Below, piece after piece: positions 22,811-31,463 of a stretch of DNA of 64,000 bases; within the stretch, counting starts at the first letter, position 1, and each line of letters begins with the position of its first letter. Source of the stretch: Alphaproteobacteria bacterium (GTDB lineage: Bacteria > Pseudomonadota > Alphaproteobacteria > Rickettsiales > SXRF01); the NCBI GenBank assembly GCA_025362975.1, contig JANYES010000011.1, positions 129,581 to 193,580 on the forward strand. Reading direction: 5' to 3'. The position numbers and the translations under genes were made by a program. The notes under the pieces were generated by a model, which was not told the origin of the DNA, did no database searches, and was given only the letters and a program-made list of their open reading frames with translations.

Positions 22811-23146
22811 TTACGGGTAGACTGTTTGAAGGAACGCGTTTACTTTCAAATATTCTGCCTGAATTAAATCCAGCAAGGCTTTCTTCTCCGCGCCGCTGGC
22901 AGCAGGGTTTTCCTGTGCTTTTTTACATAAATCACCCAGCGGATGCGCGCCAAGGTTATAACATGTCCCTTTAAGTGCGTGCGCTGTTGTCCGCCATGTT
23001 TCATTCTGACCGTCAGCGCAATTCGCCGCTAATGTTTGCAGATGTGTTTCAGTGGAATTATAAAATTCTTGAAACAGTGCCAGTTCAAGCTCTTTGTCGC
23101 CATCCGTCATACTACGAAGGTCTGTTAAATCTACGGAATTTGTCAT
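22811..23146 (-). CDS. Histidine phosphotransfer (Hpt) protein
   Basis: 111 aa. Phospho-His motif TTAHALKGTCYNLGA within a four-helix-type sequence. Confidence 0.85.
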   Translation of the reverse strand: MTNSVDLTDLRSMTDGDKELELALFQEFYNSTETHLQTLAANCADGQNETWRTTAHALKGTCYNLGAHPLGDLCKKAQENPAASGAEKKALLDLIQAEYLKVNAFLQTVYP

Positions 23147-23150
23147 AATA

Positions 23151-24176
23151 TTATGATTCTTTCTTGCGGGCGATGAAAGTATTCACTGCGCCCATGATTT
23201 TTAGCTTGTTATACGGCTTCACAATGAAACCCTGCACCTTGTTTGCCCTTGCTGTTTCCACATCTTTCACATGGTTGTTGCCAGTTACCATTACAATGTA
23301 GCTTTCGGGATCGTGTTTTCTAAAGAATGCGGCCAATGTGTGGCCGTCAGCATCAGGCAGCTCAATATCAAGAAATGCAATATCGGGGGCATGCTCAGCG
23401 TAAAGCTCAATGGCTTGCCGCGCATCTTTTGCGGTATGACAACGATATTCTTGACCAAAAAGCCCCGCCAATAGTTTGCGTGAAAACTCCTGATCTTCCA
23501 CCACAAGAAACTCTGGGGCTTTTCTAGATTTCCTGTCCACCATAGCATATTTCAGTGCCCTTTGCTGCTCTGCGGAAAACTCGGGTTTCCACAAAATGAT
23601 GGGAGGGACTATTTTTACAGATTGAGGAATTATAGGCTTAGGCACTTCATCTCGTTTTTGTTGTTGATGTAATTTGCTGCGAAGTAGCAAGCGCAAATCT
23701 TCGCCCTGCACATTCGTATCATAAAATTGGAACAATTTATCGGGAGCAACCAATTCCAACTCGGAAGGATACCGCGTGAAGAAAGCGTTAATGACGCCGA
23801 CTTTAACTTCTTTAATTCTCCCCCGCCAGCAAATGATAATATCCCCATCAACACAAAAATAAAGCTCCCCATCATAATCATGGAGAATCTCCTTAAGGAT
23901 GGATAAAGCGGTGTCGGCCGTTATTCGAAGCGAAGTTTTAGAAAATCCGCATAGCAAAACAGAACGGCTCGCCGCCTTCTGATGCAGCGTCTCAAGCACA
24001 TCAAGAAACGTTTTTTCCGCAGATTCTTGTATTAATTTAATTAGCGTATATGAGATGTACCTTATTCCAACTAAAGGGAGAATAGCATAGATTTCATGCA
24101 ACACAATCAACACATTGATAGAAAAGACAACGATGCTCAGCACCTTTTTTATTATTGACAATATTTCCCTTCGCAC
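23151..24176 (-). CDS. Response regulator: N-terminal TM segment(s) plus unknown ~180-aa domain plus C-terminal receiver
   Basis: REC: FLVVEDQEF...DIAFLDIELPDADG...IVMVTG...FIVKPY. The N-terminus ILSIIKKVLSIVVFSINVLIVLHEIYAILPLVGI is hydrophobic. The middle domain has no motif I recognise. GTG start. Confidence 0.8.
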   Translation of the reverse strand: MRREILSIIKKVLSIVVFSINVLIVLHEIYAILPLVGIRYISYTLIKLIQESAEKTFLDVLETLHQKAASRSVLLCGFSKTSLRITADTALSILKEILHDYDGELYFCVDGDIIICWRGRIKEVKVGVINAFFTRYPSELELVAPDKLFQFYDTNVQGEDLRLLLRSKLHQQQKRDEVPKPIIPQSVKIVPPIILWKPEFSAEQQRALKYAMVDRKSRKAPEFLVVEDQEFSRKLLAGLFGQEYRCHTAKDARQAIELYAEHAPDIAFLDIELPDADGHTLAAFFRKHDPESYIVMVTGNNHVKDVETARANKVQGFIVKPYNKLKIMGAVNTFIARKKES

Positions 24177-24233
24177 AAAGTGTCTGGTTGCAGCCTATCA
24201 TTACTACCTAGCCTATAATGTAATGGAGTCAAA

Positions 24234-27719: not shown

Positions 27720-27746
27720 TGGAAAATCTAATGAAAGGAGTCTCTC

Positions 27747-28874
27747 ATGCAGGTTGAACAGATTTTATGGACAAAAAATAACGGTTGGGACAAGGCTCCT
27801 GCGCTGGCAGAAGCAGGCTTGGTCATTTATTTTGGTGGCAAAGATGTGTTGAATGAAGGAACGCATTATCAGGAACTTAAAAAATTCTATCCCAAAGCGC
27901 AAATCCTTGGAGGCAGTACTGGTGGAGAAATTTCGGGTGCGGAAGTACTTGATGATAGCATTACTGTGGCAGCAATCACCTTCTCAAAAACAACCCTACA
28001 GGTGGCCTCCACTCAGGTTAAAAATGCAGAGGACTCATTTAAGGCAGGGCAAACGCTGGCCAACGAATTGAATAAGTCCGATTTAAAAAACATTTTCATT
28101 CTATCGGATGGCACCAACGTAAATGGTAGCGATCTGGTGCGCGGGTTGTATGATGTGCTGGATGAAAAGATTATTGTTACCGGTGGTCTTGCAGGAGATG
28201 GCGCAAATTTTAAACATACGCTGGTGGGGTTAAACGCACCGCCGGCAGATAAAGTCATCGCCGCCATTGGGTTTTACGGCAATGCCCTCCAAGTACAATA
28301 TGGTAGTGTCGGCGGTTGGAGCAAGTTTGGGCCGGAACGTAAGATTACCAAGTCCAAAGACAATATTCTGTATGAGTTGGATGGGAAACCAGCACTCGAT
28401 CTCTATAAACAATATCTGGGCGATGATGCCAATAAACTGCCCGGTAGCGCATTGCTTTTTCCTTTGAGTATTCGCCCGATGCAAGAATCAGAACATGATA
28501 TCGTGCGCACCATTGTCGGCGTGGACGAAAAAGAAAAAACCATGATTTATGCGGGAGACATCCCAACGGGCCACATCGCACAACTTATGCGTGGTGATTT
28601 CGATTTGCTGATCGATGGCGCAACGGAGGCCGCAAAACTTGCCCAAGGCGAACAAACTGGCCAGAGCCTGGCTATTCTGGTGAGCTGCATCGGAAGAAAG
28701 CTGCTGCTCGGCCAATCCATTTCCGACGAAACGGAGGCCGTTGCCGATGTCTTCAATCATAAAATTCCTATGATCGGCTTTTATTCGTATGGTGAAATTT
28801 GCCACCAGCAATTCACTGGCAAGTGCAGCCTTCACAACCAAACTATGACCGTTACGGTATTCCATGAAGCCTAA
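27747..28874 (+). CDS. FIST-domain sensory protein (FIST_N + FIST_C)
   Basis: LVIYFGG...[12 protein letters not shown]...[19 protein letters not shown]...VTGGLAGDG...LLFPLSI...[13 protein letters not shown]...[16 protein letters not shown]. Confidence 0.8.
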
Positions 28875-30765
28875 AATACCAGATTCCCCCCATCGCTTGT
28901 TAGCGCGGCAATTGCATAAAGCGAGCACAACTGGTGTTGAGTTGGATGTTTCCGCACTTCTGGAAATGGTCAATAAAGCGTATTTGGAGCATGACCATAC
29001 ACGTCTTATGAATGAACGGGCCATGCGTTTAATGTCAGATGAAATGGCACAGCAGAACCGTGAACTGGAACGCCACCAGCAGCATCTAGAAGATTTGGTT
29101 TCCGAACGCACAGTTGAACTCATTAGTGAAAAAGAACGCGCTCAAGCTGCTACGCGCGCGAAGAGCGAATTTCTGGCCAATATGAGTCATGAGATTAGAA
29201 CGCCGCTCAATGGCGTACTGGGAATAACGGGGCTACTGCTCGACACACAACTTGATGAAGAGCAGCGCAACTGGGCGCAAATCATCCAGAAATCAGGCGA
29301 TGCATTGCTCGAAATCATCAGCGATATTCTTGATGTCTCAAAAATCGAGGCAGGGGAGCTAGCGCTGGATACAACGAATTTCAGCCTGTATTCGACCATC
29401 GAAGATGTCACGAATTTCATGATGTTCCGTGCGCAGGAACAGCATATCGAGTTGTTGGTTGAAGTTACCGAGAATGTGCCGGATTACTACCTTGGCGATG
29501 TTGGGCGTATCCGACAAATTGTGCTGAATTTGCTAACAAACGCCATTAAATTTACCCAAGAAGGTTACGTGGTATTGCGCATCCGTTCCCAAGATTTGGA
29601 TGGGAAAAAGGCAAGATTGTTTTTTGAAATTGAAGATACGGGCATCGGTATCCCGGAAGATAAACTCAATTATATTTTTAATAAATTTACGCAGGCCGAA
29701 GAATCCACCACGCGAAAATATGGCGGAACGGGTTTAGGGCTTGCAATCTGCAGAAGCCTCACCGAACTGATGAGAGGCTCCATTGGCGTGCGCAGCACTC
29801 TTGGTAAAGGTTCCGCCTTCTATTTTGATATTGTATTGCCCTATGGTGAAAAACCGCAGGATAAACTGGAATCCTACCCGGAAATTGAACTATCGAATCT
29901 GAGAGCATTGGTGGTGGATGATTTGCCTATCAACGGGCATATACTTTCGCAATATTTAGCGCGGTTGGGCATGGAATGCACAGTCGCGCTAAAGGCTGAT
30001 GATGCTGAAAATATTCTGCTAAAAGCCCATGAGAATGGGCAACCCTACCACATCGCATTTGGGGACAGGCAAATGCCTGAAGTGGGCGGCACAGAACTAG
30101 TGCGCCGCATCAAGAAAGACGTGCGGCTTAAAGATACGGTGCTGATTATGATTACCTCGTCCACCTCTGGTGTAGTAGAATCACCTCCGGCAATATTGCA
30201 ATCCGGATTTCTTGGGTTTTCAATGAAACCCTATCATCCTCTACAGCTCAAAAGCCTCATTTTGCGTGTGTGGGAAGCGCATATGCGCCATGACTATAGT
30301 AAGCTGATCACCAACAACTCCGTGTCGCTTTCTTTATCACAACAGCCGTCTGCAAAAAGCACAGCCGCCAGCATAGCCGTCAGTGAAGGCAATACAAAAA
30401 ATACCTTTGCGCTGGTTGTAGATGACATGCCAGTGAATCGCACGCTGTTGGTCGAAACCTTAAAAAAAATGGGATATAAGGTGGACATTGCCGCCAATGG
30501 CATAGAGGCCGTCCACCTGGTTGACACGAACCAATATGACATCGTATTTATGGATTGTCATATGCCTGAAATGGACGGTTATCAGGCTACGCGTGAGATT
30601 CGTGCACGTGAGCAAGGTAGTTCCAAACGATTGCCAATTGTGGCCATCACTGCCGACGCAATGAAGGGTAACGAACAGCGTTGTTTAGATGCCGGCATGG
30701 ATGACTTCATTGCTAAGCCATTAAAAAAAGAAAAACTGGAAGCCGTCATCAGAAAATGGTTATGA
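28864..30765 (+). CDS. Hybrid sensor histidine kinase (coiled coil-HisKA-HATPase-REC-REC), paralog of 24879..27719
   Basis: [19 protein letters not shown]. 51 of 72 residues are identical to the other kinase across the HisKA stretch I aligned by hand. [25 protein letters not shown]1 [13 protein letters not shown]2 [10 protein letters not shown]...[13 protein letters not shown]...AITADAM...FIAKPL. Overlaps the FIST stop by 11 nt. Confidence 0.9.
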
Positions 30766-31463
30766 AACATATTGTCCCAGACCAATTCACATTCAAAATG
30801 TTAGCGAATCTCATTCGTTCTGACCCGGCCAGTTGGCGGGAAACGGGGATGCTTTACCTTCGTCCTTGCCCGGAAACCTTGAAAGATAGTGCCAATTTAG
30901 CGGTAGTCCGTGGTCAACATGGCGACGCTATGATACTTGGCGCAATTCCCGCCGATTACATATCCGCGTCCAACGCTTCTATTATCTGCCATATCCATGA
31001 TATTTATCTCGACTGGCAATTCGTCGTCGAATTATTGGGATTTGCGGGTACAGAAATAACAATTACTCTACCAACAACGGAATATGCAAAAAAACCACTG
31101 ACGATGCTTATCGTAGAAGATGATCCTTTAACCAGCAAACTTGTGTCGCATCATTTGCAGCAATTCGGCAAAACGATCACGACAAAAAACGCCCGTGAAG
31201 CCATAGCAAATAATAATGTAAACTCTCCAGATATGATCTTTTTGGATATCCATTATCATGATGATATATTTGATGGATTCGATGTATTAACCAATATCCT
31301 CGGGACTAATAGAAATGCTTTTGTTATAATGTTCTCGGCCGACCGCCACCCCACAACGATCATGAGAGCGCTTTCCCTTGGTGCACAGGGCTTTATCACA
31401 AAACCTTTCCATGGCTCCGACTTAGTTTGTTATGTGGATAAATTCTGGCATAAAAACACATGA
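30762..31463 (+). CDS. Response regulator: unknown ~110-aa N-terminal domain plus receiver
   Basis: REC: [12 protein letters not shown]...[11 protein letters not shown]...VIMFSA...FITKPF. ATG at 30762 overlaps the kinase stop (ATGA). An alternative ATG lies at 30756. Confidence 0.8.

Follow-up and report, generated by a model that had tools for sequence, protein, structure and literature searches.

We analysed a stretch of 64,000 nucleotides (nt; hereafter the window) from an assembly designated Alphaproteobacteria bacterium (Rickettsiales, SXRF01; GenBank assembly GCA_025362975.1, contig JANYES010000011.1, forward strand positions 129,581 to 193,580), which harbors a block of phosphorelay genes at positions 22811 to 31463. 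The block comprises genes for two hybrid histidine kinases (HK1 and HK2), a FIST protein, a free histidine phosphotransfer protein (Hpt) and two response regulators (RR1 and RR2). Both regulators combine an N-terminal domain without a match to a known family with a C-terminal receiver (REC); for this un-named family we use the name X-REC. The genes are arranged as follows:

22811-23146, minus strand: Hpt, 111 amino acids (aa), Pfam Hpt 2.9e-09, phospho-accepting His56 in the motif HALKG
23151-24044, minus strand: RR1, X-REC of the 'A' lineage with an N-domain of ~135 aa, a linker and a C-terminal receiver (REC 2e-20)
24234-27719, plus strand: HK1 pseudogene, APC permease, two transmembrane helices, HAMP, HisKA, HATPase, REC and REC, conceptual product of 1,162 aa
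27747-28874, plus strand: stand-alone FIST_N/FIST_C protein, 375 aa, Pfam FIST 3.4e-47 and FIST_C 1.4e-37
28864-30765, plus strand: HK2, sensor-less hybrid kinase, HisKA-HATPase-REC-REC by Pfam, NahK-like
30756-31463, plus strand: RR2, X-REC of the 'B' lineage with an N-domain of ~110 aa and a C-terminal receiver at residues 118-225 (REC 1.4e-17)

An earlier interpretation of this DNA, made from the letters alone (the sequence-only reading), had described a compact low-GC phosphorelay cassette with hybrid kinases, a free Hpt bearing HALKG and two receiver proteins. Its domain inventory was correct, since every domain that it named (Hpt, AA_permease_2, HAMP, HisKA, HATPase_c, REC, FIST and FIST_C) was found by Pfam, the GC content is 0.44-0.49, and the equivalents of Asp57 and Lys109 are invariant in all six receivers when aligned with CheY. 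In addition, the phospho-acceptor histidines can be read from the sequence, within SHEIRTP in HK1 and HK2 and within HALKG in Hpt.

The FIST/HK2 couple and the NosP pattern

The Pfam matches to FIST (161 bits) and FIST_C (129 bits) cover residues 25-353 of the 375-aa protein, and its stop at 28874 overlaps the start of HK2 at 28864 by 11 nt. As had been proposed, HK2 has no sensor domain of its own, and Pfam yielded HisKA-HATPase-REC-REC only. The 11-nt overlap, likewise taken from the sequence-only reading, holds for the ATG at 28864 but not for the start at Met49; the former start is called in the Logan assemblies (633 aa), the latter by NCBI (585 aa).

This gene order is reminiscent of the NosP systems. 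NosP comprises a FIST domain with bound haem, senses nitric oxide (NO), and binds and regulates an adjacently encoded sensor-less kinase (PMC12570481). The NosP system of P. aeruginosa has NahK as its co-cistronic hybrid kinase, from which phosphate is transferred to HptB, a free Hpt protein (PMC11784011); the Legionella operon has the order nosP-nahK-narR (PMC11237717). As in the known NosP/NahK (NosK)/HptB or NarR-NosR systems of P. aeruginosa (PA1975-PA1976), L. pneumophila (lpg0279-0277) and B. pseudomallei (BPSS1646-1648), the FIST_N/FIST_C protein of the window is encoded immediately upstream of, and overlapping with, a sensor-less hybrid kinase. Moreover, a separate Hpt is present, comparable to the NahK to HptB pair, and the operon also includes a gene for a response regulator. 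In contrast to these systems, HK2 carries a REC-REC tail and no PAS domain, the regulator of the operon bears the un-named X domain instead of GGDEF/EAL or HD-GYP, and the sequence similarity of the proteins is low. Because a NosP/NahK/Hpt-type relay is recognisable, the cassette does not open a new category.

In NCBIfam, the sole match of the FIST protein was NosP (NF041558, model positions 39-355 of 368), and HK2 matched the 'near-NosP' NahK/ErcS family (NF041832). The couple matches a NosP system in architecture and context, but by sequence it is only a distant relative, and we do not class it as an equivalog. Among species-representative genomes, the closest FIST proteins share 45-49% identity and are encoded beside a PAS-GGDEF-EAL protein (locus L003) or a kinase (locus L002). 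A PDB search with the FIST protein returned no significant match and, by sequence, no solved FIST structure.

The sequence-only reading had favored amino acids or amines as the ligand of the FIST protein. Although FIST ligand chemistry is considered only partly understood (PMC8846402), those stand-alone FIST proteins beside sensor-less kinases that have been characterised are NosP haem/NO sensors (PMC12570481, PMC11784011, PMC8846402), and the amino-acid reading of FIST is outdated.

HK1 and its exchanged sensor

HK1 was read by Pfam searches on its fragments, by three-frame translation and by reconstruction. The content and order of its domains are as previously described. However, the permease does not run directly into the HAMP-kinase as a single open reading frame (ORF), which is interrupted at three sites:

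24813-24815, plus strand: in-frame TGA between the transmembrane blocks of the permease, replacing an invariant Trp (VDW) in an alignment with 10 homologues
27307-27315, plus strand: 1-nt insertion in an A-rich stretch between the two receivers, frame 0 to frame 1
~27543-27575, plus strand: second frameshift, within the second receiver, frame 1 to frame 0, with the A5 run at 27543-27547 as the simplest site

The extra base was located by means of the intact linker HSGSQRQSEEAKQYPSKRLLVVEDV of L004, a 6.2-kb contig of another metagenome-assembled genome (MAG) from the same accession series, and the Pfam REC match of the last receiver is divided over two frames. Over 5.5-14.4 kb, three Logan assemblies (SRR23617210, SRR23617307 and SRR23617308) and a second MAG (GCA_043761865.1) are 100% identical to the window, and in all of them the same fragments of 193 aa and 812 aa are called, followed by a receiver fragment of 74 or 85 aa. 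Since the lesions are identical in five independent assemblies, namely those of three Sequence Read Archive (SRA) runs and two MAGs, HK1 is a recent pseudogene. The kinase core still shares 91.5% protein identity with the L004 kinase, with a ratio of non-synonymous to synonymous substitutions (dN/dS) of 0.057 at a dS of 0.8, which indicates that HK1 was under strong constraint until recently.

The assignment of the N-terminal transmembrane block to an amino-acid permease withstood the comparison with family models, as the second fragment matched AA_permease_2 with 1.3e-21 and 77.5 bits (cut-off 27); the match to HAMP was weak (25.3 bits). In PDB, the permease retrieved y+LAT, xCT, LAT1, BasC and ApcT-type transporters with E-values from 1.9e-10 to 1e-5. 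We consider the assignment to the APC superfamily sound, and by sequence the transporter part is a distant relative of the LAT/SLC7, BasC and ApcT-type transporters. In line with the earlier interpretation, HK1 and HK2 are paralogues with the same REC-REC tail; they share 45.6% identity over 588 aa, and 52 of 72 residues over the HisKA stretch, where 51 had been counted before.

The comparison with L004 reveals how HK1 came by its sensor. With 45% GC, L004 resembles the island, and its layout matches the window, a hybrid kinase being encoded divergently from an RR1 gene and an Hpt gene, the products of which share 78% and 86% identity with those of the window. Using blastn, we found DNA homology to L004 at window positions 22715-24203 (80%) and 26109-27433 (85%), and none between:

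24204-26108, plus strand: swapped-in sensor cassette (APC and HAMP), without DNA homology to the MHYT sensor at the same position in L004

Within this gap, L004 encodes an MHYT membrane sensor; its counterpart in the window consists of the APC permease, two extra transmembrane helices and HAMP, in a segment with a GC content of 51%, while the remainder of the island has ~46%. Two further loci, L086 and L096, likewise have MHYT hybrid kinases beside RR1-like and Hpt genes. Moreover, the coiled-coil linker from HAMP to HisKA (26000-26110, residues ~590-625) is ~28 residues shorter in HK1 than in ten other APC-HAMP kinases. As this gap falls exactly where homology to the L004 MHYT kinase resumes, it is probably a recombination scar. 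Taken together, these comparisons indicate that the ancestral MHYT sensor of HK1, which is kept in the closest relative, has been replaced by an APC-HAMP module. The MHYT domain of CoxC was shown to respond to carbon monoxide (PMC11347149). The kinases of L004, L096 and L086 hold an MHYT domain, as do CoxC, NbdA and MucR, where the window, itself without MHYT, has the APC module; the known MHYT proteins, however, are LytTR regulators or c-di-GMP enzymes and not REC-REC hybrid kinases.

Using the N-terminal 612 aa of the reconstructed HK1 as query, we obtained more than 1,325 homologous proteins; among the best 120, identity is 60-66% across 95-100% of the query. The APC-HAMP module is fused to HisKA-HATPase-REC, to HisKA_2/HWE-type kinases, to PAS-kinases or to GGDEF-EAL. 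The named matches belong to Burkholderiales, Verrucomicrobia, Chthoniobacterales, Planctomycetota and Gammaproteobacteria, and an intact copy, annotated as hypothetical, is present in the cultured Verrucomicrobia bacterium IMCC26134 (AKC81560.1). Thus, the notion that the fusion is unusual does not hold. That it is uncharacterised agrees with our literature search, which found no publication on APC-permease-HAMP fusions or APC-permease-fused kinases. CbrA has been called a rare transceptor (PMC13022988), and prokaryotic transceptors have been described as almost unreported (PMC11109136). Like the SSSF-STAC-PAS-HK transceptors CbrA and CrbS, HK1 consists of a whole secondary transporter fused N-terminally to a histidine kinase. 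In contrast to these proteins, its transporter has the APC/AA_permease fold and is not a sodium:solute symporter, the coupling runs via two extra transmembrane helices and HAMP instead of STAC, and the window copy is a pseudogene; correspondingly, Pfam detected AA_permease and HAMP in HK1, and neither SSF nor STAC.

The X-REC regulators

The N-terminal domains of RR1 and RR2 (RR1-N and RR2-N) gave no signal when compared directly, and their link is visible only through the wider family. Of the 150 top representatives that the RR2 search returned, 106 matched a hidden Markov model (HMM) of the X-REC N-domain at E < 1e-3; the model had been built from 59 of those same proteins, all of 255-315 aa and with a C-terminal receiver. 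With hhalign, RR1-N matched the X-REC profile with a probability of 97.3% (E 1.9e-11 over 123 columns) and an independent family alignment of 24 sequences with 96.4% (E 1.3e-9), and RR2-N matched the X-REC profile with 95.2% (E 2.7e-8 over 99 columns). These profile comparisons show that both N-domains are homologous to one un-named family and that the two regulators are related to each other. The X domain has the signature DPxSxxxW.(C)LH, followed by C.DGDI..L.R and YDL..W..V..LL.

Neither regulator has a known output domain, in agreement with the sequence-only reading. Pfam gave no match outside the receiver in RR1, RR2, their orthologues and eight wider family members, even with E up to 10, and NCBIfam gave no output-domain match for RR1 and RR2. 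Likewise, none of the classical output classes (OmpR, NarL, NtrC, LytTR, CheB, GGDEF/EAL, HD-GYP and PP2C) was matched by either protein, and PDB sequence and profile searches with RR1-N and the family N-domain yielded nothing significant. The order of secondary structure elements and the 'C.DGDI' hairpin had raised the idea of a GGDEF/cyclase-like fold, which was rejected because hhalign with RR1-N and the wider profiles against GGDEF returned probabilities of 0.2-0.3%. At source, the only annotation of X-REC proteins is 'response regulator'.

The maximal ORF of RR1 spans 23151-24176 on the minus strand, with REC at residues 224-331. A word search with the N-domain returned only four close homologues (41-78% identical, all ~297 aa), and all four of these orthologues start at MLIKLIQ, 44 codons inside the maximal ORF of the window:

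24045-24176, minus strand: upstream extension of the RR1 ORF, probably a non-coding 5' leader; ACG at 24047-24045 replaces the ATG of the orthologues

The codon log-likelihood of this extension is 0.034 per codon, compared with 0.23-0.40 for real genes. The orthologue starts, the ACG and the lack of coding signal identify the 'membrane anchor' formerly assigned to RR1 as an artefact of extending the ORF to a GTG at 24176. The divergent intergenic region of 57 bp depended on the same GTG; measured from the orthologue start, 44 codons further in, this region is ~190 bp long.

For RR2, a k-mer (word) search with the N-domain found nothing. In contrast, an exhaustive HMMER search retrieved ~17 full-length homologues (220-249 aa, 33-47% identity), which have the motifs RDPxSWxGxSLxY and DIAxxW in common. 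This search and the codon statistics (coding signal of the N-part 0.226 per codon) rule out that the N-part is orphan or non-coding. In addition, a CheY-like protein of 120 aa starting at Met116 was rejected in view of the missing Shine-Dalgarno sequence, the upstream coding signal and the full-length homologues. RR2 is a genuine two-domain protein. The ATGA overlap with HK2 noted before applies to a start at the second ATG (30762), whereas from 30756 the overlap amounts to 10 nt.

In other genomes, genes for X-REC proteins are found in the following arrangements:

L094/L095, Alphaproteobacteria MAG: sigma-54 activator response regulator (divergent); X-REC, X-REC, truncated globin, HisKA-HATPase-REC-Hpt
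L097, Logan contig: globin and sigma-54 activator response regulator (divergent); X-REC, X-REC, GAF-PAS-kinase-REC-Hpt
L098, Logan contig: X-REC, X-REC, GAF-kinase-REC-Hpt, then che genes
L100, Rickettsiales MAG: globin and sigma-54 activator response regulator; X-REC, X-REC, PAS-kinase-REC-Hpt
L102, Alphaproteobacteria MAG: sigma-54 activator response regulator; X-REC, X-REC, PAS-kinase-REC-Hpt
L096, Logan contig: RR2-like, RR1-like, Hpt and MHYT-HisKA-HATPase-REC-REC in one gene row

A genome scan with a 6-sequence subset of the N-domain alignment returned three loci only. At all six loci listed the two X-REC genes are adjacent, whereas those of the window reside in separate operons (RR1-Hpt and FIST-HK2-RR2) ~6.6 kb apart. 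The RR1 HMM picks out the first X-REC protein at L094, L097 and L098; the RR2 HMM picks out the second one at L094 and L097 but not at L098. Because the members of a pair score with the two models respectively, the A and B lineages look like old paralogues that travel together.

A truncated globin is present in three of the four distinct canonical cassettes (L094/L095, L097, L100 and L102), and an NtrC-type sigma-54 activator in all four. The combination of globin, sigma-54 activator, tandem X-REC and hybrid kinase-Hpt appears to be a regulatory unit linked to haem that has not been described. Haem or gas sensing is also what the sensors that recur (globin, MHYT, NosP-like FIST and GAF/PAS) point to, as a trend drawn from ~10 loci and not as a statistic. 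In these canonical cassettes the same regulator family adjoins a sigma-54 activator with a receiver; the non-transcriptional output postulated by the sequence-only reading is unproven.

PhyR, PatA/PATAN and CheV combine an N-terminal effector with a C-terminal receiver, and the known examples act by protein-protein interaction. X-REC proteins have the same inverted order, a non-receiver domain followed by a C-terminal receiver; unlike these proteins, RR1, RR2 and the eight family members lack Pfam matches to the sigma-70-like, PATAN/DUF4388 and CheW domains.

Genomic setting and proposed mode of action of the island

The GC profile of the window shows 0.44-0.49 over ~19.0-32.0 kb, compared with 0.53-0.58 in the flanks. 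The left edge of the low-GC region coincides with a tRNA gene:

19046-19121, plus strand: tRNA-Ala(GGC), predicted by ARAGORN

A direct repeat of ~130 nt (19116-19243 and 22230-22358, copies 87-89% identical), the first copy of which begins in the 3' end of this tRNA gene, encloses a split EamA gene and SelO. Serial integration into a tRNA gene typically produces such an arrangement, and the repeats suggest a separate insertion between the tRNA and the phosphorelay block. In our view, the phosphorelay island was horizontally acquired, with tRNA-Ala(GGC) as its likely integration site. The LepA of the host, an uncultured alphaproteobacterium, shares at most 77% identity with Alphaproteobacteria MAGs, its FliI is of clade 3, and none of the protein clusters at 90% identity includes a named relative.

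Several observations concern the surroundings. The EamA-family transporter gene (19358-20470, minus strand) is broken into two ORFs of 137 aa and 218 aa, the second with an unusually His-rich C-terminal tail (HEHSHTHDTMEHDHKHFHDAHHQHTHD...), and is a probable further pseudogene or encodes a metal-related exporter. The 720 bp between SelO and Hpt (22092-22810) contain no ORF of at least 60 aa. At the equivalent site of L004 (4361-4765), a 134-aa ORF ends in a C-terminal receiver remnant, which indicates that one more kinase decayed in this lineage. To the right of the island, host genes at normal GC start; the region 32050-38000 encodes a PstS-family phosphate-binding protein, a CsoR-type metal repressor, FliJ, FliI (clade 3) and a 539-aa protein with a signal-like N-terminal stretch and no family match. 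A promoter and terminator scan of 22-32 kb found fewer promoter-like sites than in shuffled controls.

We consider it probable, at roughly 60%, that the locus is an acquired island with a NosP-type relay core, consisting of FIST, HK2, Hpt and the X-REC pair, in which HK1 is a dead second input. The FIST protein would most likely bind a small ligand, by analogy haem with NO or another diatomic gas, and would thereby control autophosphorylation of the adjacent sensor-less HK2. Phosphate would pass from the HisKA histidine to the aspartate of an internal receiver, then to His56 of the free Hpt, and from there to RR1 and RR2 at their C-terminal receivers. The N-terminal domain of X-REC (~110-150 aa) would be the regulated part, and since neither an enzymatic nor a DNA-binding signature is detectable, it probably works by protein-protein contact. 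HK1, a kinase from the same subfamily, would have provided a second input; its MHYT was replaced by APC-permease and HAMP before one nonsense mutation and two frameshifts inactivated it.

Several points weigh against this proposal. The FIST protein scores 56.9 bits against NosP, where the equivalog cut-off is 450, and HK2 scores 202.9 bits against the NahK/ErcS family, where the family cut-off is 400; with both scores below the cut-offs, haem or NO sensing is an analogy only. The phosphotransfer partners are inferred from gene adjacency, including the single-row layout of L096. RR1 may not be expressed, because its ancestral start codon is lost, and the output may be incomplete, because the island is without the sigma-54 activator of the canonical X-REC cassettes. 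AlphaFold2 did not provide a structure of either N-domain: for RR1, a 5-sequence alignment gave a mean predicted local distance difference test (pLDDT) score of 54.6, with ~70-82 in the N-domain, and a Foldseek search of PDB with this model returned receiver domains only; for RR2, the single sequence gave a pLDDT of 39.8. Finally, the whole island could be decaying, given the dead HK1 and the split EamA gene.

Taken to its end, this last point means that the island would be a non-functional relic of transfer heading for loss, the intact genes of which are merely too recent to have decayed. The three HK1 lesions, the lost ATG of RR1, the split EamA gene (19358-20470) and the gene-free 720 bp (22092-22810) fit such a scenario, as do the receiver remnant in the L004 relative and the fact that the island has neither the sigma-54 activator nor the globin found in canonical cassettes. 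However, none of FIST, HK2, RR2 and Hpt is truncated, all their catalytic residues are present, and dN/dS against L004 is 0.06-0.11 (0.11 for both RR1 and Hpt). Moreover, the sequence is identical in three samples, and the island is therefore stably carried. Hence, we regard decay of the entire island as unlikely, albeit as the most serious competitor.

Far less credit is due to the working relay with two inputs for amino acids or amines put forward by the sequence-only reading, in which a transport-sensing APC kinase and a FIST protein with an amino-acid-like ligand would feed two non-transcriptional regulators. The APC assignment is sound (AA_permease_2 77.5 bits; LAT/SLC7, BasC and ApcT-type proteins in PDB), both kinases end in REC-REC and could share a single Hpt, and FIST ligands are generally unsettled (PMC8846402). 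However, HK1 carries its stop and two frameshifts in all assemblies of the organism, so that only one input is intact. Furthermore, the characterised stand-alone FIST proteins beside kinases sense haem/NO (PMC12570481, PMC11784011), and the position of HK1 was ancestrally held by a kinase with MHYT, a gas-type sensor (PMC11347149). That the HK1 interruptions are sequencing or assembly errors in an intact gene is highly improbable, because, although both frameshifts lie in short A runs, a typical error site, the nonsense change is a substitution and not a homopolymer error, the assemblies of three separate SRA runs and two MAGs are 100% identical over 5.5-14.4 kb, and other nearby genes are damaged as well.

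With the acquired NosP-type relay as the favored reading, the genuinely new element of the locus is the X-REC domain family, followed by the APC-HAMP transceptors as a second lead. Tentatively, and with more doubt than confidence, we suggest that X-REC could represent a new class of regulators with a new N-terminal output domain, which would always occur as an A/B pair after hybrid-kinase/Hpt relays with haem- or gas-biased sensors (truncated globin, MHYT, NosP-like FIST and GAF/PAS) in uncultured Alphaproteobacteria and Rickettsiales, and that APC-HAMP could form a large conserved transceptor family (~60-66% identity across phyla) pluggable into kinases or c-di-GMP enzymes. The X-REC output domain, for which the searched Pfam and NCBIfam libraries have no entry, is a concrete target for the study of structure, partners and phenotype. 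The comparison with L004 offers a clean natural case of sensor-module exchange on a conserved kinase; MHYT gave way to APC-HAMP at breakpoints that are resolvable to a few bases, and the resulting chimera died afterwards. Bacterial transceptors are still called rare in recent papers, while APC-HAMP fusions are numerous and highly conserved, and the copy in strain IMCC26134 could be tested.

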